A stretch of 64,000 nucleotides of DNA from a virus. The stretch lies in the UHGV virus genome UHGV-0370399, one strand, 5' to 3'. The translations under genes were made by a program, and so were the position numbers. Below, piece by piece: positions 52,669 through 64,000 of the stretch. Every line of letters starts with the position of its first letter. The first letter of the stretch is position 1. Below the pieces are notes generated by a model. The model saw nothing but the letters and a program-made list of their open reading frames with translations. It was not told the DNA's origin and did no database searches.

Positions 52669-53217
52669 ATGAAGAAATTGATTCTAGGTTTGTGCTTAAT
52701 GTTTACAGCACACTTATCTTATGCAGTTGACTGCCCAGAGCTATCAATTAGCCAAAAAGTAAACATGTTAAAAGCTTACCAGTATGGTGAGAATAACATG
52801 GGTAAAGGTTGGGGTATCACTCTAGCTGCTATAGCCTTACAAGAGTCAGAGTTAGGTCTGAAGGTAGAGAATAAAAAGACCCATGACTATGGTATCTTCC
52901 AGAATCACTTGAAGACTGTTGTAAAGCGTAACAAAATTAGTCCTAATGTGGCTAAAAAGAAACTCTTAAAAGACTTTGACTATGCTGCGAAGGAAACTCA
53001 CAAAGAGCTTGAGTTTTGGACAAAGGTGCATGGTCAGCCAAAGTCAAAGAAGACTTTACAAAAAGTTTTAGCATCATATAATGCTGGGTATTCGTACAGA
53101 ATCCCTAAAGCTAAGAAATATTCTCAAGATGTCTATAACAACATGAAAGTTATTGCTCAATGTGAATTTGCAACAAACATTTCTAAGGTAAACCATGAAA
53201 AAATTAAAAAAGTCTGA
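52669..53217 (+). CDS. signal-peptide lytic transglycosylase (SLT domain), endolysin candidate
   Basis: N-terminal MKKLILGLCLMFTAHLSYA signal; catalytic-region motifs QESE, YGIFQ and AYNAGY match the SLT family. Confidence 0.55.
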   Translation: MKKLILGLCLMFTAHLSYAVDCPELSISQKVNMLKAYQYGENNMGKGWGITLAAIALQESELGLKVENKKTHDYGIFQNHLKTVVKRNKISPNVAKKKLLKDFDYAAKETHKELEFWTKVHGQPKSKKTLQKVLASYNAGYSYRIPKAKKYSQDVYNNMKVIAQCEFATNISKVNHEKIKKV

Positions 53218-55938: not shown

Positions 55939-56724
55939 ATGGGTATTGTAAAAATCATCAATGGCGATATCTTTGCTGCATTTGATAAAGGTAAGTTTGA
56001 CATCATTGGTCATGGTTGTAACTGCATGAACCTAATGGGTGCAGGTATCGCTGACAAGATTTCTAAACTTTACCCAAAAGCATATGAGACCGATACAGAA
56101 GTTTATCTCTATGCAGGTGGTATAGGTCATAAACCCTGTGAGAATTTACTAGGTAATTTCTCTGTAGCACGCTTAAAACAAGGTCGTATAGCTAACCTTT
56201 ACACTCAGCTTAAGACTGGTAAAGATGCCCGATACAGTGCTTTAGAGTCATCTTTGAAGCAACTTAACAGATACTGTGAAGTTAATCAGTTGAAGAAAGT
56301 TGGTTTACCTATGATTGGTGCAGGTATCGGTGGACTTGACCCTCAAGCCGTCACAGTTATCATCAATCAGGTGATGAAGAGTGTAGATGTTTATCTATAT
56401 GTCTATGAAGGAGAGATGTACCACAAGTTACTCTCAGGTTGGAAGAACTACTGTGAACCAGAATACTTTGCAGGTGTAGCAGTGTTCACAGATAACGCAG
56501 TTACCCTCTTCAGACGAAGAAAAGGTAAGATACATCAAAGTAACCCTCCGGTTGAAAAGATGTCTCTGAGTAACGCTCTAGTTACCCACCTGTCGAAGAG
56601 CAATCACAGGATTGCAGTAACATTTGGCAGTGATGCAGATACTTATATCTATGCAAGAACTGATGAGGATATCGAGACAGTTTTCTCTTCACCAGAAGTT
56701 ACCTTCTTAGACGCAAAGAACTAA
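55939..56724 (+). CDS. macro-domain (ADP-ribose binding/processing) protein
   Basis: GDIF...DIIGHGCNCMNLMGAGIA and VGLPMIGAGIGGL parallel the macro-domain VNAAN..L.GGGV and glycine-rich loops. Confidence 0.6.
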   Translation: MGIVKIINGDIFAAFDKGKFDIIGHGCNCMNLMGAGIADKISKLYPKAYETDTEVYLYAGGIGHKPCENLLGNFSVARLKQGRIANLYTQLKTGKDARYSALESSLKQLNRYCEVNQLKKVGLPMIGAGIGGLDPQAVTVIINQVMKSVDVYLYVYEGEMYHKLLSGWKNYCEPEYFAGVAVFTDNAVTLFRRRKGKIHQSNPPVEKMSLSNALVTHLSKSNHRIAVTFGSDADTYIYARTDEDIETVFSSPEVTFLDAKN

Positions 56725-56791
56725 GAAACTCTGTAGGATATTCACAATAGCCTAAGCCTTTCTTATCTGGTAAATTTTTCAGGTAAGGAGG

Positions 56792-56975
56792 GCTTTTTCA
56801 TTTCAGAATTGTGCAGGTAGAGTTCTGTAGAGAAATCTGTAGAGAGAATTTTGAACTCCAAAGAGAAAATTCATTTTCAAACTGTGCAGATAATCTCCAA
56901 AGAGCTTTTTCATTTTCAAAACGTGCAGACCACACTCAGGTCGGGCAAGAAAAATCATTTTAGGATTGTGCAGGT
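56792..56975. repeat. four iteron-like copies of a 20 nt motif
   Basis: tcattt(t)cA(g/a)AAtTGTGCAG at about 56799, 56871, 56911 and 56956; tandem tctgtagaga x2 at 56821-56848. Confidence 0.7.
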
Positions 56976-57000
56976 AGGTTTTTATAGAGAGCCAGACCAA

Positions 57001-57031
57001 ACCCTCTCCCCCTCTTACTCCCCCTCTCCCC
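57001..57031. repeat. polypyrimidine C/T mirror-repeat tract
   Basis: accctctccccctcttactccccctctcccc, pure pyrimidine on the + strand. Confidence 0.7.
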
Positions 57032-57153
57032 AAAAGTCAAGAGAAAAATTTGTAGCGGATTGAAAAATAATTCTTGATTTGTGTTCTGTTTTGTGGTAGT
57101 CGTGTGCGCCCGTTTCATTACAGTTTTGCCAAAAATATTTTTAAAATTTTTTC

Positions 57154-57245
57154 TTGACTCTTTGAACGTGGTTATCTAGTATTTGCATCAACGGGGAGGG
57201 AATGACCTTCCCCACTAAATAAAGTCCTAAACTGGAGATTCAAAA
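57154..57245 (+). promoter_or_regulatory. cassette module A1: promoter, 5' stem-loop and RBS
   Basis: TTGACT-17-TAGTAT, then caacGGGGAGGGaatgaCCTTCCCCactaaataaagtcctaaactGGAGattcaaaaATG. Confidence 0.65.
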
Positions 57246-57629
57246 ATGGCATATCGTGCACCTAAATTCATCAACAAAGACAACTTTCGCAACGCACTGG
57301 AGAAGTCACTTGATGAGAATTTTAAAGGGAATAAAATTGTTGTTCACGCATTCAATTTTAAGTATGATATCAACGGGAATAAAATCAACCACTACACGGC
57401 AACTATGATAGATGGTACGCTTTCAAGCGAAAAAACTATTCTCAATGCACTTGCTGGACGTGGGAAAAACCTGATAAGATGCGATAAGAGACGTTATCAG
57501 GGCGGCGCATATGGTTATGATGATGCTGTCTATCATCTTGAAAATATGGGCTATTCAGTAGAAAAAGTTGGAGCGTCGCAAATCATCGGTAGTGATGGTT
57601 ATGTAACAATCCTCAAAATTAACAAATAA
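57246..57629 (+). CDS. cassette gene 1, hypothetical protein
   Basis: 127 aa; preceded by module A1; last codons (LKINK) lie inside the next module. Confidence 0.5.
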   Translation: MAYRAPKFINKDNFRNALEKSLDENFKGNKIVVHAFNFKYDINGNKINHYTATMIDGTLSSEKTILNALAGRGKNLIRCDKRRYQGGAYGYDDAVYHLENMGYSVEKVGASQIIGSDGYVTILKINK

Positions 57630-57715
57630 AGTACTTTACAAGGGGCTTATAGTTCGATAAAGTAAGCCCCAGATAAAGAGCTTTACCACTAAATCCTAAA
57701 TTGGAGAACTTAAAA
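57630..57715 (+). promoter_or_regulatory. cassette module B1: hairpin overlapping promoter, plus RBS
   Basis: aagtacTTTACA then GGGGCTTA-13 nt-TAAGCCCC hairpin (57642-57670) containing TAAAGT, then agataaagagctttaccactaaatcctaaattGGAGaacttaaaaATG. Confidence 0.6.
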
Positions 57716-58009
57716 ATGGCTATTATCAAAAACGTTGTAATTACCGCAAAGACTCGTGATGACGCTCGTATCATGGCTAAAAAGTTATGCGGGAAAGTGG
57801 TTGACAACGGAAAACAATCTGCTGTAAGGTGGGGCGTGAAGGTTGATAAACAGTTGAAGTTAAAAAATTCACCGATAAACCTTTTTACATGTGTAAACAC
57901 TATCGGGAAGACAAATGTATACACGAAAAAGGCATATATTAGACGCGTAGCATTAACATCCCCCATTCGCACAATGAGAAGTTATGCAAAGCTGAAAATT
58001 AACAAATAA
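57716..58009 (+). CDS. cassette gene 2, hypothetical basic protein
   Basis: ORF-track start is the TTG inside the module; ATG at 57716 follows the conserved GGAG; ends KLKINK. Confidence 0.5.
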   Translation: MAIIKNVVITAKTRDDARIMAKKLCGKVVDNGKQSAVRWGVKVDKQLKLKNSPINLFTCVNTIGKTNVYTKKAYIRRVALTSPIRTMRSYAKLKINK

Positions 58010-58094
58010 AGTACTTTACATGGGGTTTAAAAGTTGATATCTTAAGCCCCAGATAAAGAGCTTTACCACTCAATCCTAAACTGGAGATTCAAAA
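58010..58094 (+). promoter_or_regulatory. cassette module B2
   Basis: TTTACA, hairpin GGGGTTTAA ... TTAAGCCCC (58022-58050), conserved RBS segment. Confidence 0.6.
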
Positions 58095-58607
58095 ATGAAA
58101 ACTGTAGACGCTACCTTTGAAGTTGTAAAAGAAAAATTCACCATTATCTATGAAGCTGTTAATTGCTTTGAAGCAAGTCATAATCTTGACAATTGGAAGT
58201 TTACAGATGACCATCAAGGCGGTGTAACTGTTAAAAATCCTAACTGCCAGCATAATGAATTTAAATATGCAATCCCTTTACATTACAGCCTTAAACAGCT
58301 TTCTAGTGACTATGCAAAACAAGGCCGGGAAAATCCATCAAAAGAGGCTTACGCAAGCTTACAGAAAGAACTAGAAAGAGATTTAGAGGCGTCAGAGTAT
58401 AACCTTGCCGCGAAAGTTGTGGATGCAAACGGTAGCACGGTTTTAGAAAGTTTTTATCTTGGTTATGCTTTCGATTGGTGCTATCGTGACGGCGATGATT
58501 TAGAAGATAGACTAAAAGAAGAGGTGAACAACGCAGACGCAGAATCTGAAGTATTAGAACGTTTGGAATCGTTGAAAGACTCAGTGATGAATATCTTTAA
58601 GAACTAA
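58095..58607 (+). CDS. cassette gene 3, hypothetical acidic protein
   Basis: 170 aa after module B2. Confidence 0.5.
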   Translation: MKTVDATFEVVKEKFTIIYEAVNCFEASHNLDNWKFTDDHQGGVTVKNPNCQHNEFKYAIPLHYSLKQLSSDYAKQGRENPSKEAYASLQKELERDLEASEYNLAAKVVDANGSTVLESFYLGYAFDWCYRDGDDLEDRLKEEVNNADAESEVLERLESLKDSVMNIFKN

Positions 58608-58699
58608 ATAGATTTCTTTACACGGGGTTATCAAGCTGGTATGATAGCCCCAGATAAAGAGATTTATCAAATAAAGCCCTTAAACTAGGAGATTCTAAA
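58608..58699 (+). promoter_or_regulatory. cassette module B3
   Basis: TTTACA-17-TATGAT with hairpin GGGGTTATCA ... TGATAGCCCC (58624-58651); stem sequence covaries relative to B1. Confidence 0.6.
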
Positions 58700-58996
58700 A
58701 TGAAATTATCAAATCAAGTGCGTGAAAATCTAAGCAAATTACTCAACAAAATTGATTTCATTGAAACATCAAGGAATAGTCATGATGTTATGGAATGGTT
58801 ACACGGCAAAATAAAAGGTCGTCGTGTAGTGATTTGCTTATGGAATAGTTGTAGGGAATATAAAAAACCTGTATTGCAAGTCAATATTTATGATGATACT
58901 TTTAAAAGTCCTGTAAAGTCTAAAAGCGATTTATTAGAATCCTATGAGATAACTGTAAATGGCAAAGTATCACGTAAAGAGAAAACACCATGTTAA
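58700..58996 (+). CDS. cassette gene 4, hypothetical protein
   Basis: 98 aa after module B3. Confidence 0.45.
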   Translation: MKLSNQVRENLSKLLNKIDFIETSRNSHDVMEWLHGKIKGRRVVICLWNSCREYKKPVLQVNIYDDTFKSPVKSKSDLLESYEITVNGKVSRKEKTPC

Positions 58997-59322
58997 TGAT
59001 GGGTATCACTGCAATCATTGCCATTATAGCACTTTACAAGGCTTATAGCGCATATACTTTGGCAAGTAAGGCAATCACGCAACAGGTTAACAATAATCTC
59101 GTGATGAGCTTTCTAGAGCGTTTAAGTGATGAGCAAATAAAACGGTTAGAAATGAGCTTCAGATTCCAATCAAAAACTTATCAAATCAGCGACATTTTCA
59201 AAGATGATTTCCAGTTAGTCGATGATTATAACTCTCTGATAAATGCTTTAAATATCAGTGATTTAAAAGATTATCATGCTGTAATTGTTCAAGAATTGAG
59301 CAAACGAAAACAAAACTGTTGA
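58990..59322 (+). CDS. cassette gene 5, membrane-anchored hypothetical protein
   Basis: N-terminal hydrophobic helix; coupled to gene 4 with no module between; stop TGA lies inside the next TTGACA. Confidence 0.45.
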   Translation: MLMMGITAIIAIIALYKAYSAYTLASKAITQQVNNNLVMSFLERLSDEQIKRLEMSFRFQSKTYQISDIFKDDFQLVDDYNSLINALNISDLKDYHAVIVQELSKRKQNC

Positions 59323-59413
59323 CACTGATTTCTAGATAGATTAAATTACTAATCAACGGGGAGGGAATGACCTTCCCCACTAAATAAAGTCCTTAAACTA
59401 GGAGATTCAAAAA
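59319..59413 (+). promoter_or_regulatory. cassette module A2
   Basis: TTGACA-17-TAAATT then the conserved stem-loop leader and GGAG. Confidence 0.65.
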
Positions 59414-59686
59414 ATGTATACTACTAACAACGGTCGCACCTTAAATGTCACCTTGCGTCACTATGTAGACGGTGTGATGTGCTTTGAAGATTTACGGGCT
59501 GAGCAACACATCTTAAATTGGCAAGTTGCAGGACTCCAAAAAACTGCTACCGGATACGGTAAAAAGATTCCAACTAGCTGGAAAGTATACTACGAAGGCC
59601 GTTTGCGTAGAATTTATCAAGATGTACACAGCAATAGCGCAACAAGTTACATCATGGTAAAAGGTAAAAAGCTGCATTTAGTATAA
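59414..59686 (+). CDS. cassette gene 6, hypothetical protein
   Basis: 90 aa after module A2. Confidence 0.45.
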   Translation: MYTTNNGRTLNVTLRHYVDGVMCFEDLRAEQHILNWQVAGLQKTATGYGKKIPTSWKVYYEGRLRRIYQDVHSNSATSYIMVKGKKLHLV

Positions 59687-59772
59687 AGTACTTTACAAGG
59701 GGCTTATAGTTCGATAAAGTAAGCCCCAGATAAAGAGCTTTACCACTCAATCCTAAATTGGAGAACTTAAAA
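59687..59772 (+). promoter_or_regulatory. cassette module B4 (near-identical to B1)
   Basis: About 86 bp direct repeat of 57630-57715, hairpin 59699-59727. Confidence 0.6.
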
Positions 59773-60177
59773 ATGGCTATTAATAACCGTGAATTATCAA
59801 CCTTAAAAGCACGTTTGACCGTTAATCGAATCAACATTATGACATCATCAGCGCCTGATGAGACATTGCACAACATTATCGGAAAGATTCAAAGCGTTAT
59901 TTTAGACGTTGAAAACGTAAAAAATTCATTGGCTGACGTTGCAGCAGGTATCACGCTAGACGGTGCGCAATATGAAATGTCCGACATGTTAGGCAAATCT
60001 AAGGTAATGAATAAAGAGTTAGATTTGAAAATGTTCCGATTTGCTGTTAAAGTGTGGCTATCTGTCGAGTATGATGCTAACTTTGCAATCGCTGACTTTT
60101 TCGCCACTTGGTTGCAGCGTAATTTGACTAATCATGACTTCCGTAATATCTGTGATGCAATTTATGCAGAACTTTAA
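59773..60177 (+). CDS. cassette gene 7, hypothetical protein
   Basis: ATG at 59773 (ORF-track start is the TTG inside the module); N-terminus MAI as in genes 2 and 9. Confidence 0.45.
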   Translation: MAINNRELSTLKARLTVNRINIMTSSAPDETLHNIIGKIQSVILDVENVKNSLADVAAGITLDGAQYEMSDMLGKSKVMNKELDLKMFRFAVKVWLSVEYDANFAIADFFATWLQRNLTNHDFRNICDAIYAEL

Positions 60178-60186
60178 AAAATTTTG

Positions 60187-60278
60187 TTGACACTGATTTT
60201 TAGATAGGTTAAATTACACATCAACGGGGAGGGAATGACCTTCCCCACTAAATAAAGTCCTAAACTGGAGATTCTAAA
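60187..60278 (+). promoter_or_regulatory. cassette module A3
   Basis: TTGACA-17-TAAATT then the conserved stem-loop leader. Confidence 0.65.
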
Positions 60279-60527
60279 ATGATGAATTTTTTAAATATCC
60301 CTGATACTTGCCGACTGTTGACGCAACCAGAAAATTTAGGCAAACCTTTCCTGTACCATATGCCAGACAATACACCAAAAACATATAGCTACACGGTTAA
60401 CCGCTTTACGGGTTACGCTGCAAAAAACGGTTACAAGGTTACTACTCAAAAAGTAACACTATTTACAAATATCGAAGAGCTTCCAACAATCGCTGTAAAA
60501 CTAATATTTACGAAGAAGACGCAATAA
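60279..60527 (+). CDS. cassette gene 8, hypothetical protein
   Basis: 82 aa after module A3. Confidence 0.45.
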   Translation: MMNFLNIPDTCRLLTQPENLGKPFLYHMPDNTPKTYSYTVNRFTGYAAKNGYKVTTQKVTLFTNIEELPTIAVKLIFTKKTQ

Positions 60528-60613
60528 AGTACTTTACAGGGGGCTTGGAAGTTGATATCTTAAGCCCCAGATAAAGAGCTTTACCACTAAATCCTAAACT
60601 GGAGAACTTAAAA
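60528..60613 (+). promoter_or_regulatory. cassette module B5
   Basis: TTTACA, hairpin 60540-60568, conserved RBS segment. Confidence 0.6.
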
Positions 60614-60817
60614 ATGGCTATTATCAACGGCTTACACATTGAAACAACTCACATCAAAGATATTAAAGTTGGTGATGTAGTCCTTTCCCACGGCGTAGAG
60701 AAAACTGTCACTGCAAAGGATATTAAAGAGGATTCTTTCATGGGTAGGACTCTTTTCGGTGATTCTTATTGCTTAGGTTACCTTGCAGTTTTAAAAGTTG
60801 TCAAAAATAACAAATAA
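60614..60817 (+). CDS. cassette gene 9, hypothetical small protein
   Basis: 67 aa; starts MAII; ends KNNK inside the next module. Confidence 0.45.
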   Translation: MAIINGLHIETTHIKDIKVGDVVLSHGVEKTVTAKDIKEDSFMGRTLFGDSYCLGYLAVLKVVKNNK

Positions 60818-60902
60818 AGTACTTTACAAGGGGCTTAAAAGTTGATATCTTAAGCCCCAGATAAAGAGCTTTACCACTAAATCCTAAACTGGAGATTCAA
60901 AA
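60818..60902 (+). promoter_or_regulatory. cassette module B6
   Basis: TTTACA, perfect 9 bp hairpin GGGGCTTAA ... TTAAGCCCC (60830-60858). Confidence 0.6.
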
Positions 60903-61445
60903 ATGAAATGTTTTCACGGTACTACTCAAGAAAATTTCCTCAACCTGATTAATAACGGTGATAAACCATCAGGCGCATGGAATTGTTCGGATATGGACGG
61001 CAATTTTTACGTGTATCCAGAAAATAAAATCTATGGCGACGATGAGGAAGAAATAATCTCTGAAGGTATCCAGCAAGCTCTTGGCAATGCCACTATAACG
61101 GCAGCTTTTCAGATGAAAACTCAAAATATTGTTATCTTGGAACTTGATATTCCAGAGGATGAGTTGAATGATGATTATTCTTGTGATAATATGTCGAGCG
61201 TGGCAAGTTTTACAGAGTATTTTGATATAAGCTGGATTAAAAAGGTTTACATCACTGAATTTAATGCCATGTTTTCACCTTTTTGTCTTCCTTCATTGGA
61301 TAACCCAAATTTAAATTATCTTGATGAGTCTCTGGAGCTTCTTGCTAAAAGTGTTCAACAGTCGGACAGTATTCAGGTTTTTTGTGACATCATGGATACA
61401 CTAACAGGAAACATCACAGAAGAAGATTTAAAGAGCTTTTTCTAA
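60903..61445 (+). CDS. cassette gene 10, hypothetical acidic protein
   Basis: 180 aa after module B6; followed by a terminator. Confidence 0.45.
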   Translation: MKCFHGTTQENFLNLINNGDKPSGAWNCSDMDGNFYVYPENKIYGDDEEEIISEGIQQALGNATITAAFQMKTQNIVILELDIPEDELNDDYSCDNMSSVASFTEYFDISWIKKVYITEFNAMFSPFCLPSLDNPNLNYLDESLELLAKSVQQSDSIQVFCDIMDTLTGNITEEDLKSFF

Positions 61446-61477
61446 AAACCTATGCAATCACCTTATAAACACTAATC

Positions 61478-61497
61478 AGCCCCTCACAGGGGCTTTT
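61478..61497 (+). terminator. intrinsic terminator
   Basis: AGCCCCT cac AGGGGCT followed by TTT; same element as 63577-63598. Confidence 0.6.
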
Positions 61498-61511
61498 AGG
61501 GGGCTTAAATC

Positions 61512-61745
61512 ATGCTAACAACCATTTATCTCATCCTCTCAATTTGTAATGGCCATTCATGTGATTTTAAAGGGCTTGAGGAGTTCACAGGAAGTAAAGA
61601 AAATGCTATTCAAGTTTGCCAGATAGCAAGGCAAGACTACCCCGCAAGTGATGATATTCAGTGTTACTTTAAGACAGAAGATGACGACGGAATCTATTTC
61701 GATAGTGTTGATGGTCAGTATGAAATTATCATTGAAAAAGACTAG
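61512..61745 (+). CDS. cassette gene 11, small protein with hydrophobic N-terminus
   Basis: 77 aa; SD aggggg; stop TAG forms the first bases of the next -35 hexamer. Confidence 0.4.
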   Translation: MLTTIYLILSICNGHSCDFKGLEEFTGSKENAIQVCQIARQDYPASDDIQCYFKTEDDDGIYFDSVDGQYEIIIEKD

Positions 61746-61835
61746 ACAAGCCTGATAAAAATCTGTAAATTGTCAATCAACGGGGAGGGAATGACCTTCC
61801 CCACTAAATAAAGTCCTAAACTGGAGAATCTAAAA
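61743..61835 (+). promoter_or_regulatory. cassette module A4
   Basis: TAGACA-17-TAAATT then the conserved stem-loop leader. Confidence 0.6.
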
Positions 61836-62177
61836 ATGGCTTATGTAACCGTAATTACCGATAAAGCTGGCGCATCTTGGTCAACTCAGGTCAGTGATAA
61901 GATGTCACCTATGCAGTGCCTAAAATACTTTGAACAGTGGAATAAAGGCGAGGACACAAGCCCCTTTCAAGTGATGCAGATTATCCATGTAGACAATGAA
62001 GGGAATAAAACGACACTGAATAGTGAGTACTATGCAAGCCGTTTTGAAACGAGAAGTAAAACAATGAAACTTTTACGTGAATCCGGTTATGCCCATATCG
62101 CCGCGTTAATCTGGGATGACCTGCTAAAAAGTCAGCGTATCAGCTATGTAAAGCCTGAAAAAATATTCATCAGTTAA
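61836..62177 (+). CDS. cassette gene 12, hypothetical protein
   Basis: 113 aa after module A4. Confidence 0.45.
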   Translation: MAYVTVITDKAGASWSTQVSDKMSPMQCLKYFEQWNKGEDTSPFQVMQIIHVDNEGNKTTLNSEYYASRFETRSKTMKLLRESGYAHIAALIWDDLLKSQRISYVKPEKIFIS

Positions 62178-62209
62178 TCAATAACTTATAAAAAACTTTT
62201 AAAAAAGTG

Positions 62210-62238
62210 TTGACAATACCCATTGACATTGGTAACTT
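62210..62238 (+). promoter_or_regulatory. orphan sigma70-like promoter
   Basis: TTGACA-17-TAACTT with a second TTGACA inside the spacer; no ORF before the next module. Confidence 0.45.
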
Positions 62239-62307
62239 TGTTCGAGGGGGTTTATCTAAAAGGGATTCACTTAAAAGATTTCTTTATAGATAAGCTTAAA
62301 AAATTGC

Positions 62308-62429
62308 TTGCAATCAGATATCAAAACAAGTAAATTACTAATCAATGGGGAGGGAATGAACTTCCCCACTAAACAAAGCCCTTAAACTAGGAGATTCTAA
62401 AATTCAACTACATCCGTTCAATTCATGTC
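62308..62429 (+). promoter_or_regulatory. cassette module A5 (degenerate; start codon displaced)
   Basis: TTGCAA-17-TAAATT with stem-loop variant GGGGAGGGaatgaaCTTCCCC; the usual ATG position reads aaaattc and the gene ATG is 30 nt further. Confidence 0.5.
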
Positions 62430-62915
62430 ATGTCAAAGCCTGTTAAAGATACCTATGAATTCCGTTGTAATGGGGTACACTTTGCAACCATCACTAAGTC
62501 AGAAAACGGGGCTTATTATGTACATCGTCGTAATGTTGCAACCGTTGTAGTCTCTCACTTTATGCAAGCTGTAGCGGAATTATTACCGTTATTCTTAGAG
62601 ATTTACTTAGATGAGTGTAAAAACGTTCACAACCACGTTAAAAACCTTTTAAACGGTTATAAAATGGCTTATGAACGTTCTATTAAGTCACTGAATAAGT
62701 TTTACAATGCACCTGCAAATACTGTTTCAATGGCTTATGATGTAAACGGTGAGTTAGTTAGCCTCTTCGAAGTGGAAGGAATTAAGCTGTATAATTTACG
62801 TCCTAGCGGTTACTCTAAGACTCTTGGTGAAGGTTTATCCTTTAATATCAAGAACTTAGAAAAAACTTTAAAAGACATTGAAAAAGATATTGACGAGACA
62901 CTTAAAAGTCTGTAA
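62430..62915 (+). CDS. cassette gene 13, hypothetical protein
   Basis: 161 aa; ATG far from the module SD; stop TAA lies inside the next -10 hexamer. Confidence 0.4.
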   Translation: MSKPVKDTYEFRCNGVHFATITKSENGAYYVHRRNVATVVVSHFMQAVAELLPLFLEIYLDECKNVHNHVKNLLNGYKMAYERSIKSLNKFYNAPANTVSMAYDVNGELVSLFEVEGIKLYNLRPSGYSKTLGEGLSFNIKNLEKTLKDIEKDIDETLKSL

Positions 62916-62981
62916 ATTGTCAATCAACGGGGAGGGAATGACCTTCCCCACTAAGTAAAGTCCTAAACTGGAGTTATCAAG
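62890..62981 (+). promoter_or_regulatory. cassette module A6
   Basis: TTGACG-17-TAAATT then the conserved stem-loop leader. Confidence 0.6.
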
Positions 62982-63245
62982 ATGGAAAACGTAGAATTAA
63001 CCACACTTTTACAAATTGCAACCGACAAAGAAAACGTAGCTTTATTTCACCGCATCGAAAGTGATTTGTTCAATGGTGAAATCATCAAAGAGTCTTACGA
63101 GGTTGTTGGATTCAAAGATGGTAAAACATTTGGATTCTTTGACCTCGAAAAAGGCAACGCTGTTACAAAATATGATGTTTTATCTTGTGAGATTCTTACA
63201 AAATACAATGAAAAAAGGCTTGCAACATACGCCAATATGCAGTAA
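62982..63245 (+). CDS. cassette gene 14, hypothetical protein
   Basis: 87 aa; stop TAA coincides with the -10 TAAATT of the next module. Confidence 0.45.
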   Translation: MENVELTTLLQIATDKENVALFHRIESDLFNGEIIKESYEVVGFKDGKTFGFFDLEKGNAVTKYDVLSCEILTKYNEKRLATYANMQ

Positions 63246-63311
63246 ATTACTAATCAACGGGAGGCGATAACCTCCCCACTAAATAAAACCCTTAAACTAG
63301 GAGATTCAAAA
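63220..63311 (+). promoter_or_regulatory. cassette module A7 (stem-loop with compensatory changes)
   Basis: TTGCAA-17-TAAATT; leader hairpin GGGAGG cgataa CCTCCC replaces GGGGAGGG aatga CCTTCCCC while keeping base-pairing. Confidence 0.6.
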
Positions 63312-63725
63312 ATGGCAACTATCCGCGCTACTGTTAACGAGTTCGGTTTTTCCTCTCTGGATGTTAAATTTGACATTGCAGGCACTGATAACGCCTTTGA
63401 AATGGTGAAAGGTCTTATCAGTCAGACCATCAAAGACTATAATCCTTCTGATGAGTTCTGGAAAGAAACAAAACAGGAAGTTCTCAAAGAGGGTTATTCT
63501 TATCACTATTGGGGTGAAAAAATTGTCTCTCTGTACTACGACAAAGAAGGCACTATAGCCTCAGATACCTTTATACAGCCCCTCATAGGGGCTTTTTTAC
63601 GTCTATCCAATCCTTATACAATCCCTTTCCCTCACCTTTCCAGAATCTTATCAGACCTTAAAAGCAATAACTCTATAGTCTACTCTATAACCTCTTATCA
63701 AATCAACTTAAATAAAAGCCAATAA
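63312..63725 (+). CDS. cassette gene 15, hypothetical protein (3' end uncertain)
   Basis: 137 aa ORF after module A7; a terminator-like hairpin lies inside it about 130 nt before the stop. Confidence 0.4.
   Translation: MATIRATVNEFGFSSLDVKFDIAGTDNAFEMVKGLISQTIKDYNPSDEFWKETKQEVLKEGYSYHYWGEKIVSLYYDKEGTIASDTFIQPLIGAFLRLSNPYTIPFPHLSRILSDLKSNNSIVYSITSYQINLNKSQ
63577..63598 (+). terminator. terminator-like hairpin embedded in the last cassette ORF
   Basis: AGCCCCT cat AGGGGCT followed by TTTTT. Confidence 0.5.
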
Positions 63726-63943
63726 CCCCAGAAAGGGGATGGCCCATTTAAACGCTCTATAAAGCTCTATAACAGCCTTATCAACCTAACTTAAGGGATT
63801 GCATTAACCTATCTTAAAAAGCTCTTTACAGGGCTTTATAGAGGCTTAAAAGAATCTTATAAGGGTGTAAGCTTATAGGCTGGTTAGTATCTTGTGAATG
63901 GTTAAACAACCCCCTTGCTAGTCACTAAAAAGCATGTTATAGG

Positions 63944-64000
63944 GGCTATAAAGTTACTTCAAAGTTACGTAAAAAAGGCTATAAAGTTACTTCAAAGTTA
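63944..64000. repeat. tandem 33 bp repeat truncated by the window edge
   Basis: ggctataaagttacttcaaagtta at 63944 and 63977 separated by cgtaaaaaa; CTATAAAG-like motifs also at 63764-63784 and 63834-63845. Confidence 0.7.

Follow-up and report, generated by a model that had tools for sequence, protein, structure and literature searches.

Promoter-early-stem-loop (PeSL) elements are defined by an upstream stop codon, an AT-rich tract, sigma-70 hexamers, a GGGG...CCCC stem-loop, a Shine-Dalgarno (SD) sequence and an ATG, and they lie in hyperplastic regions of ORFan genes (PMC2839356). Three positions are listed for the stem-loop, of which the one over the -10 is the commonest and the others are between the hexamers and immediately past the -10; it often contains G-T pairs (PMC2839356). 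PeSL cassettes are known in the phages RB49/phi1, T4/PST and KVP40/nt-1 (Arbiol 2010, PMC2839356; Comeau 2014, PMC4122927), and modular gene shuffling mediated by them has been documented only in T4-type phages. Here we describe an array of small genes, most of which are fronted by one of two recurring modules of PeSL-like architecture, in the virus genome UHGV-0370399 (64,000 nucleotides, hereafter the window, whose positions are used throughout). The window is a Felixounavirus (Ounavirinae) genome of the Felix O1-like kind, matching 259 phage records that are essentially all Felix O1-like, and the Ounavirinae constitute an unrelated second lineage for arrays of this type. We put at roughly 75% the probability that the array is a hyperplastic early-gene region of a virulent Felix O1-like myovirus, in which the modules serve both as expression units and as substrates for homologous recombination.

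The 2010 genome paper on Felix O1 listed direct repeats of 57 bp and 39 bp without interpretation and outside the promoters that it reported (PMC3185647); these repeats are the modules described below. No later description of the modules in Felix O1-like phages was found in the searchable open-access literature, where later comparative papers are silent about them (PMC8300805 and others).

Results

Two modules recur in front of the array genes

The array covers about 6.5 kb and holds 15 small open reading frames (ORFs; g1 to g15), all on the + strand, between two intrinsic terminators. A module precedes 13 of the 15 genes (seven of type A and six of type B, spanning 57154-63314). The first-pass annotation, made from the letters and their ORFs, had proposed seven type-A and six type-B near-identical modules and about 14 single-gene cassettes. 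All 13 modules were located and were found only in the array, and the module-fronted arrangement stood (13 genes), whereas the gene count had to be raised to 15, with the ORFs at 58990 and 61512 lacking a module. A 39-nt type-A core and a 34-nt type-B core each occurred in five copies with at most one mismatch, compared with 0 expected in shuffled sequence for either core; the copies at 62308 and 63220 (type A) and at 58610 (type B) are variants. In a covariance-model search of the whole 64-kb window, matches were confined to 57.1-63.3 kb and to the + strand, except for weak palindrome echoes.

In type A, an A-rich upstream tract is followed by a sigma-70-type promoter (TTGACA-N17-TAAATT) and by a 6-8-bp G/C hairpin that always starts exactly 10 nt after the -10 hexamer. 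The seven copies, all on the + strand, start with their -35 hexamers at 57154 (A1, 57154-57248), 59319 (A2, 59319-59416), 60187 (A3, 60187-60281), 61743 (A4, 61743-61838), 62308 (A5, 62308-62405), 62890 (A6, 62890-62984) and 63220 (A7, 63220-63314). Module A1 has the -35 TTGACT, the -10 TAGTAT at 57177-57182, a hairpin at 57193-57213, the SD GGAG at 57233 and the ATG at 57246. The -10 of the remaining six is TAAATT, which lies at 59342-59347 in A2 (-35 TTGACA, hairpin 59358-59378, ATG 59414), 60210-60215 in A3 (-35 TTGACA, hairpin 60226-60246, ATG 60279), 61766-61771 in A4 (-35 TAGACA, hairpin 61782-61802, ATG 61836), 62331-62336 in the variant A5 (-35 TTGCAA, hairpin 62347-62367, SD 62390, canonical ATG lost), 62913-62918 in A6 (-35 TTGACG, hairpin 62929-62949, ATG 62982) and 63243-63248 in the variant A7 (-35 TTGCAA, hairpin GGGAGG-CGATAA-CCTCCC at 63259-63277, ATG 63312). 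An upstream stop codon lies inside a hexamer in four type-A modules, exactly as had been read from the letters: the g5 stop TGA (59320-59322) in the -35 of A2, the g11 stop TAG (61743-61745) in the -35 of A4, and the TAA stops of g13 (62913-62915) and g14 (63243-63245) in the -10 hexamers of A6 and A7, respectively. Several of the type-A 17-bp spacers also overlap the end of the upstream gene.

In type B, a promoter of the form TTTACA-N17-TAnnnT, often with TGn, lies inside a 20-bp three-segment hairpin whose stem overlaps the -10, and a TAA stop is the first triplet of the element in five of the six copies. The copies, again all on the + strand, start at 57627 (B1, 57627-57718), 58007 (B2, 58007-58097), 58609 (B3, 58609-58702), 59684 (B4, 59684-59775), 60525 (B5, 60525-60616) and 60815 (B6, 60815-60905). 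In B1 the g1 stop TAA opens the outer helix, the -35 TTTACA is at 57635 and the -10 TAAAGT at 57658-57663; the inner hairpin spans 57642-57670 and the extended hairpin 57627-57685, and these are followed by the SD at 57702 and the ATG at 57716. The -35 and the extended hairpin are found at 58015 and 58007-58065 in B2 (extended -10 TGATATCTT, ATG 58095), at 58617 and 58609-58666 in B3 (-10 TATGAT, ATG 58700), at 59692 and 59684-59742 in B4 (the stop TAA at 59684 opening the outer helix, ATG 59773), at 60533 and 60525-60583 in B5 (stop TAA 60525, extended -10, ATG 60614) and at 60823 and 60815-60873 in B6 (stop TAA 60815, ATG 60903). B3 is a hybrid: its promoter and hairpin are of type B, with another stem (GGGGTTATC/GATAGCCCC), and its 3' tail is that of type A (repeat family D3). 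Both module types end in a common 3' tail of about 40 nt, consisting of an AU-rich leader, GGAG, 8-9 nt and the ATG, and it was confirmed that first codons (MAI...) and last codons (...KINK/KNNK) are borne by the repeats. By this architecture both types fit the published definition of PeSL elements (PMC2839356), which is the likeness that the first-pass annotation had drawn.

We aligned 61 distinct type-A and 57 distinct type-B copies from the window and 11 related genomes. Over these 118 distinct copies the hexamers and the 17-bp spacing were invariant, and the spacer sequences varied by position. The invariant columns of type A were the -35 T and G, the -10 T1, A2 and T6, the ATCAAC block, the hairpin, ACTAA, CCT and GGAG; those of type B were the TAA stop, CTTTACA, GGGG, the -10 T/A/T and the entire segment CAGATAAAGAGCTTTA. 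A consensus promoter scanner, run independently of the module definitions, called 11 of the 13 module promoters, in agreement with the predicted TTGACA-like -35, 17-bp spacer and TAAATT-type -10, and the other two (TTGCAA-N17-TAAATT) were one match short. The -12T and -11A of type B are invariant yet lie in the hairpin loop, where they are free of structural constraint, arguing for a real -10 element. The conservation of the hexamers suggests that the modules are promoters for host RNA polymerase; these would fire early. The array is preceded by an intrinsic terminator at 56754-56795 (+ strand; a 17-bp stem and a T-run), which closes the upstream operon after the macro-domain gene at 55939-56724 and equals t13 of Felix O1 (PMC3185647), and it is closed by a second one at 63577-63600 (+ strand; AGCCCCTCATAGGGGCT followed by T6; dG -11.7, z -3.6), which equals t23 of Felix O1 (PMC3185647). 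The first terminator isolates the array from upstream transcription, and with strong terminators on both sides transcription of the array must start inside it.

BLAST of both modules against 50,697 phage records matched type B in 288 records and type A in 249. By name these were Felixounavirus or Escherichia, Salmonella, Shigella and Citrobacter phages, together with 29 Erwinia-phage records that had type B only, and the module loci that we sampled were all from Ounavirinae (Felixounavirus, Mooglevirus, Suspvirus and Kolesnikvirus). Modules were found in every relative examined, numbering 6-13 in each Felixounavirus, 18 in the Mooglevirus Michonne, 16 in the Suspvirus mistaenkt (several of them marginal) and 5, all of type B, in the Erwinia phage; roughly 1,300 copies are present across about 290 sequenced genomes. 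Neither the BLAST search nor an exact-core scan of IMG/VR found modules outside the Ounavirinae, and no T4-type phage matched. The Rfam 15 covariance models gave 0 matches at E <= 1 on either strand of 56500-64000. In IMG/VR the type-B core occurred only in contigs of 53-94 kb. One of these, IMGVR_UViG_3300045988_004931 (81.6 kb), has five type-B cores at spacings of 290, 841, 1677 and 380 nt, which are the spacings of the five exact-core copies of the window; the contig may thus come from this phage or from one almost identical to it.

Given so many near-identical copies, and given that Felix O1-type genomes carry homing endonuclease genes (PMC8300805), one could envisage that the modules are small autonomous mobile elements (MITE-like, that is, resembling miniature inverted-repeat transposable elements, or homing-associated) that have spread through the region. 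We find this hardly credible, as the copies are all co-oriented, start at a stop codon, stand at a fixed distance from the start codon, show no terminal inverted repeats or target duplications, and occur only in this one array.

Cassettes turn over as units among related phages

The best-matching record covered only 78% of the region, in at least 10 pieces at about 90% identity, which was the first sign of mosaicism. We then drew gene maps of 13 Felixounavirus genomes and of three other genera. The shared cassettes keep their order across the mapped Felixounavirus genomes, with many whole-unit changes, and the relatives do not display the simple collinear block that would have counted against the first-pass reading: among 12 related Felixounavirus genomes there are cassette losses, additions, replacements and duplications whose junctions lie in modules. 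LF82P5 lacks eight genes between two type-B modules, and Felix O1 lacks g1, g2, g8-g11 and g14. In Barry, which has no g3, an empty B-B tandem remains (locus L001, 3862-4092), annotated only as 'Repeat_01', and in HY02 g3 is replaced by another gene. The g8 cassette is present in one of the 12 compared Felixounavirus genomes, VpaE1_ev035, and is absent from 10 others by per-gene identity and from Bas63 by the gene maps; the junctions of its insertion lie in A3 and B5. The g14 cassette is missing in Felix O1, ekra, fBSPA4 and Bas63. Outside Felixounavirus, Michonne carries two g2 cassettes separated by two modules (locus L012, 3728-4600) and has cassette x13 at another position, and the Erwinia phage has shared genes in a different order. 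Both the Barry tandem and the Michonne duplication resemble what unequal exchange between modules would leave behind. Cassettes are gained, lost, replaced and duplicated as whole units.

Within the array, 48 of 67 BLAST homology ends fall in modules, which make up 19.9% of the array (binomial p ~1e-19), and when the ends are collapsed to 29 distinct positions, 19 lie in modules (p ~1e-7) and three more no farther than 4 nt from a module ATG; the comparisons are non-independent, and the ends are in part pushed toward modules because homology has to stop wherever unique sequence starts. Because of these limits we also examined relatedness gene by gene. The nearest relative switches from one gene to the next, with g2, g8, g12, g14 and g15 matching at 99-100% and their neighbours at 85-95%. 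Thus, g2 is 99.0% identical to SeKF_63 and the genes beside it about 91-93%; g12 is 99.1% identical to SeKF_63, in a near-identity tract that starts inside A4; g8 is 99.6% identical to VpaE1_ev035; and g14 and g15 are 99.6-100% identical to Barry and LF82P5. The edges of the near-identity tracts fall inside B1/B2, A4, A3/B5 and A6. The module in front of a given gene also changes: g1 has an A module where it is the first gene of the array and a B module where x13-x4 precede it, and g9, which has a B module here, has an A module in every relative without g8. Three-way alignments resolve the A1/B and A3/B5 junctions to the common tail. Exact common runs are 28-65 nt long between modules of the same type, B1 and B4 sharing 65 nt, and reach up to 24 nt between A/B pairs.

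These junctions could be reconciled with modules that are only conserved expression signals, if illegitimate or random recombination supplied the changes and selection retained whole-gene products with intact signals. Viable indels in so tightly packed an array have to terminate close to gene borders, shared cassettes follow a conserved order in Felixounavirus, the modules are not homogenised genome by genome, and a few breakpoints do lie inside genes or at a plain terminator hairpin (57852-57897, 58977, 60947 and 61479). Against this, the A1/B and A3/B5 junctions lie in the common tail itself and not just nearby, near-identity tracts start and stop inside modules, and there are hybrids such as B3, with the 5' half of B and the tail of A. 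Moreover, the exact direct repeats of 28-65 nt seen here are adequate as substrates, and recombination between PeSL elements has been shown directly in T4-type phages (PMC2839356), where neighbouring elements give rise to mini-circles in the course of infection. We therefore regard expression signals alone as an unlikely explanation and favour recombination at the modules. The breakpoint at 61479, which is with SUT_S920 and falls in the hairpin between g10 and g11, suggests that plain hairpins may also serve as exchange points.

The distribution of junctions points to homologous recombination between modules as the probable cause of cassette turnover. Being co-oriented direct repeats, the modules could recombine homologously within one genome or between co-infecting relatives; such events would delete, insert, replace or duplicate whole genes, and each product would keep an intact promoter and ribosome-binding site.

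The module hairpins are maintained on the + strand

For the hairpins, structure-aware alignments of 77 type-B and 83 type-A copies were built, including copies from Mooglevirus, Suspvirus and Kolesnikvirus phages. All hairpin variants fold, with dG of -7 to -16 kcal/mol. In the type-B inner helix, 98.5% of cells are paired, compensatory changes affect four of nine pairs (for example GGGG/CCCC to GGUG/CACC in Erwinia phages, and CUUA/UAAG to UAUC/GAUA), and the covariation score is 0.303 compared with 0.101 for shuffles (0 of 500 shuffles reached 0.303), although covariance-model alignments lean toward the inner helices that are modelled. In the type-A helix, 91.6% of cells are paired and four of eight pairs show compensatory changes; in other genera the stem site is occupied by different stems (GGGC/GCCC, GGGGC/GCCCC and GGGA/UCCC). 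When read-through type-B RNA is folded, the segment with the stop codon and the -35 (UAAAGU-A-CUUUA) pairs with a downstream segment (UAAAG-A-GCUUUA), giving an extended structure of 6 + 5 + 9 bp with 1x1 and 3x3 internal loops (dG -24.3 kcal/mol, z -3.2). The outer helices, which were not part of the covariance model, have 97.8% of cells paired, with G-C replaced by U-A in 8 copies. Wobble pairs, U.G or G.U, are present in 22/75, 69/75 (an outer-helix U.G of type B) and 43/79 copies. On the opposite strand a G.U pair would become an A.C mismatch; the constraint is therefore one on the + strand, and RNA is most likely its carrier. Both module hairpins are under selection on the + strand.

That the inverted repeats act in DNA, as operators for some regulator of phage or host, cruciforms or site-specific recombinase sites (integron-like attC), might be supposed from type B, where a perfect 12-bp palindrome, TAAAGTACTTTA, covers the -35 and a near-palindrome, TAAAGAGCTTTA, lies at about +3 to +14; Arbiol et al. 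also speculated on a protein recognising GGGG...CCCC (PMC2839356). The stems, however, change sequence and keep pairing, which an operator would not tolerate, the wobble pairs are strand-specific, and no recombinase or DNA-binding Pfam domain was found among the array proteins. An operator reading of TAAAGTACTTTA and TAAAGAGCTTTA was dropped because of the covariation and of the wobble pairs on the + strand only; the two palindromes are partners in the outer helices of a single RNA hairpin. A role in DNA thus appears quite improbable to us, and we return to one in RNA.

In type A, promoter geometry (a start 7-8 nt after the -10) places the hairpin 2-4 nt from the predicted 5' end of the RNA. 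A hairpin at this distance from the 5' end guards E. coli mRNAs against decay, and the type-A hairpin may stabilise its message from the 5' end in this manner. A leader peptide that could be read in the type-A hairpin (ATG ACC TTC CCC ACT AAA TAA) was rejected, its ATG and frame being lost in the variants GATAA and TAATGA and the SD-like GGAGG lying merely 2 nt from its ATG. In type B, the predicted start is the AGA just past the 3' arm of the hairpin, on the 3' side of the 3x3 loop. Since this start lies within the 3' half of the extended hairpin, the structure would be absent from the module's own transcript and would form only in read-through RNA. There it may mark where the upstream message ends, whether through processing, 3' stabilisation or attenuation, and would insulate the cassettes from one another.

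The type-B stem-loop might instead be a transcription terminator or attenuator, which would make the cassettes insulated single-gene units. The hairpin stands directly 3' of a stop codon and its extended form is stable (dG -24.3), and PeSL stem-loops of the same GGGG...CCCC type in RB49/phi1 lowered downstream lacZ expression (PMC2839356). An intrinsic terminator, however, consists of a G/C hairpin and then a U-run, and the module hairpins have no T-run: the sequence after the inner or outer helix, AGAUAAAG / CCACUAAAUCC, contains no U-tract. A terminator scan called none of the 13 module hairpins and found three true terminator-like sites, at 56754, 61478 (weak) and 63577. In addition, a 20-bp interrupted helix with a 3x3 loop is more like the substrate of a double-strand-specific RNase. 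We consider termination or attenuation less likely than not, and lean toward an element that processes or stabilises RNA.

Early genes of T7 are separated by RNase III sites, and once these are cut the upstream message retains a protective 3' hairpin. We tentatively suggest, while thinking it more probably wrong than right, that in type B a processing hairpin of the RNase III type contains the promoter and that read-through RNA is cleaved at the 3x3 loop (CAA/AGA). On its 3' side this loop has AGA, the predicted start of the embedded promoter; processed and newly initiated messages would then carry an identical 5' end, and the upstream message would keep its protective 3' hairpin. If this were true, a cassette would be expressed alike wherever recombination lands it, and the module would be a designed 'plug-and-play' insulator, more than a stem-loop with a promoter beside it.

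Genes of the array and flanking sequences

All genes of the array are on the + strand. The first two are g1 (57246-57629; 127 aa, ending ...KINK; phrog_4495) and g2 (57716-58009; 97 aa, MAI...KINK; phrog_5089), whose ATG at 57716 stands behind the module SD. The third, g3 (58095-58607; 170 aa; phrog_4190), has homologs in Seunavirus and other large phages at 36-46% identity. In Salmonella phage GEC_vB_MG (Seunavirus, 142 kb; locus L018, 1330-1446) the g3 homolog stands behind a layout like that of type A in unrelated sequence, namely an A/T tract, TTGACG-N17-TACTAT, 11 nt, a GGGCG...CGCCC hairpin, a leader and the ATG; this single example is a hint that early promoters of these phages are commonly built with a 5'-proximal hairpin. 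The start of g5 (58990-59322; 110 aa; phrog_4375; no module; predicted N-terminal hydrophobic helix) overlaps the end of g4 (58700-58996; 98 aa; phrog_4401), so g5 is probably translationally coupled, and the two travel together in nearly all relatives. These are followed by g6 (59414-59686; 90 aa; phrog_3436), g7 (59773-60177; 134 aa, MAI...; phrog_4327), the variable cassette g8 (60279-60527; 82 aa; phrog_9030) and g9 (60614-60817; 67 aa, MAI...KNNK; phrog_3623).

The g10 protein (60903-61445; 180 aa) has an N-terminal CFHGT motif and a weak ADP-ribosyltransferase/Tpt1-like fold, and its homologs are confined to genomes of Ounavirinae size. The PhageMaP study of Bas63 independently describes the g10 ortholog gp107 as resembling the Tpt1 NAD-binding domain and as more important on E. 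coli S17-1. Between g10 and g11 there is a terminator-like hairpin at 61478-61500 (+ strand; AGCCCCTCACAGGGGCT followed by TTTT), which corresponds to a terminator annotation in phage Barry; it has a run of only four T, directly followed by the SD and ATG of g11. The module-less g11 (61512-61745; 77 aa; phrog_4640), which follows this hairpin, always travels with g10. Next comes g12 (61836-62177; 113 aa; phrog_4318).

Two genes near the end of the array have been altered by deletions peculiar to this phage. The ORF of g13 (62430-62915) reads 161 aa from an internal ATG, compared with 176 aa in relatives, and matches phrog_4725 from profile position 16. A 17-bp deletion relative to five relatives (62400-62430) removes the G of the ATG and the first g13 codons, and the SD of A5 now stands 37 nt from the next in-frame ATG; g13 is therefore probably crippled in this phage, being N-terminally truncated or poorly translated. 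After the variable cassette g14 (62982-63245; 87 aa; phrog_7022), g15 (63312-63725) reads 137 aa, with only residues 1-81 matching phrog_4559, whereas in relatives it has 82 aa and ends near 63560. A 24-bp deletion (63555-63560) has removed the g15 stop and the 5' arm of a GGGGCT-AAAT-AGCCCC hairpin, and because the stop codon was lost the ORF runs through the terminator to 63725. The hairpin at the array end looks like a remnant of a type-B module.

The profile searches that had been proposed for the cassette proteins gave little beyond the weak fold of g10: no Pfam domain was found above threshold in the 15 array proteins, and PHROGs placed all 15 in families of unknown function. The Bas63 knockout screen gives about two-thirds as nonessential, as a genome-wide figure only. 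For the candidate roles in host takeover or anti-defence that the first-pass annotation proposed, the g10 fold is the one hint. We infer that the array genes provide dispensable, lineage-variable accessory functions for host interaction.

The upstream neighbours are nrdD, rIIA, rIIB, polynucleotide kinase (PNK), spanins and the macro-domain 'phosphatase', and the same set is present in Felix O1. Some relatives annotate an 'endoribonuclease' beside rIIB and PNK, and a RegB-like endoribonuclease cutting the invariant GGAG sites was considered, with the window ortholog at 52669-53217 as the candidate. This idea was dropped; the protein belongs to phrog_600, of unknown function, gave only a sub-threshold SLT hit and had no sequence match to solved structures. 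Between the upstream terminator and A1, at 56798-57035, there are four to five direct repeats of about 35 nt with the consensus TCATTTTCAAAnTGTGCAGrTA (families D5 and D9), followed by the C-rich tract CCCTCTCCCCCTCTTACTCCCCCTCTCCCC; the spacer is 87-97% identical in relatives, and its repeats could be iterons or regulator binding sites. At 63700-64000, 3' of the array, a non-coding stretch contains repeated units of the types CTATAAAG and GGCTATAAAGTTACTTCAAAGTTACGTAAAAAA. In ekra and mistaenkt the matching area adjoins the record end and has annotated repeat_regions, and terminal repeats of 608 bp have been reported for UAB_Phi87, so 63700-64000 may lie near the physical genome end.

Discussion

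The results described above favour an array in which the same modules express the cassettes and allow them to be exchanged. Besides the limits attached to the breakpoint statistics and to the covariance-model alignments, several points weigh against this reading. The conserved order of cassettes implies that free shuffling of order is rare in Felixounavirus. Modules of one genome are no more alike than modules of different genomes (type A 0.898 compared with 0.888; type B 0.865 compared with 0.864), and intragenomic concerted evolution was rejected for want of excess within-genome similarity, the comparison being between different positions; exchange at the level of the population fits these values better than frequent intragenomic conversion. 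The promoter scanner reported 35 promoter-like sites in the region compared with 24 expected by chance, so the hexamers alone prove little. No mapping of transcript 5' or 3' ends for any Ounavirinae phage was found in the searchable literature, and the promoters and RNA roles are accordingly predictions. The early timing claimed by the first-pass annotation was borne out in part: in a coarse RT-PCR (reverse transcription PCR) analysis of Felix O1, array ORFs 16, 20, 21 and 22 (four of seven) peak at 5 min, whereas ORFs 17, 19 and 23 were placed at 25 min.

The feature will not surprise a phage genomicist; it extends a mechanism that had been tied to a single group of phages and provides an unusually clean system for testing it. 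Felix O1-type phages are widely used for biocontrol of Salmonella and E. coli and for typing, and as closely related isolates differ most in the array, it is likely the seat of their differences in host range and defence evasion. With about 290 genomes and the tractable Bas63, for which there is a genome-wide knockout library, the recombination model and the RNA roles of the hairpins can be tested directly. For phage engineering, too, the modules provide expression units that are ready to use and independent of context.

Among systems less close than PeSL, the RNase III sites of T7 are likewise intercistronic hairpins of about 20 bp with an internal loop, set among small early genes that host RNA polymerase transcribes; they have no promoters, however, and the likeness to type B is one of size and shape only. 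Type A resembles the stabiliser in the E. coli ompA 5' untranslated region in having a G/C hairpin predicted 2-4 nt from the 5' end, an AU-rich leader and an SD. Unlike stabilisers of that kind, it has a 5' end that is a prediction, it is repeated before many genes, and its stem holds an SD-like GGAGG. In integron arrays and among phage 'morons', too, single accessory genes, promoterless or self-expressed, are gained and lost as units at repeated boundary elements. Here, in contrast to integrons, each boundary repeat doubles as a promoter, homologous exchange is the simplest explanation, and there is no attC/attI logic; no integron integrase domain was found by Pfam in the array proteins or in the neighbours scanned with them (the macro-domain protein, PNK, rIIA/B and spanins). 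The difference from morons is that the flanking signals are conserved and shared.

The closest likeness is to the PeSL cassettes of T4-type phages. Both are composites of about 90-100 bp with a stop codon, an AT-rich tract, sigma-70 -35 and -10 hexamers, a GGGG...CCCC stem-loop with G-T pairs over or past the -10, an SD and an ATG; both cluster in hyperplastic regions of small ORFans; and in both, the elements delimit the indels and replacements that distinguish relatives. The present modules differ in belonging to the Ounavirinae, which are not T4-like and show no sequence similarity to T4-type genomes, in forming exactly two sharp classes with one common tail, in having a type-A hairpin that lies inside the transcript, and in having a type-B structure of 20 bp in three helices, backed by covariation, with the whole promoter and the stop codon inside it. 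As the module searches match only records of the Ounavirinae type, membership among PeSL elements is by architecture and behaviour and not by descent. The two-module version in the Ounavirinae suggests that such elements are a general, convergent route by which lytic phages maintain rapidly exchangeable early accessory genes.

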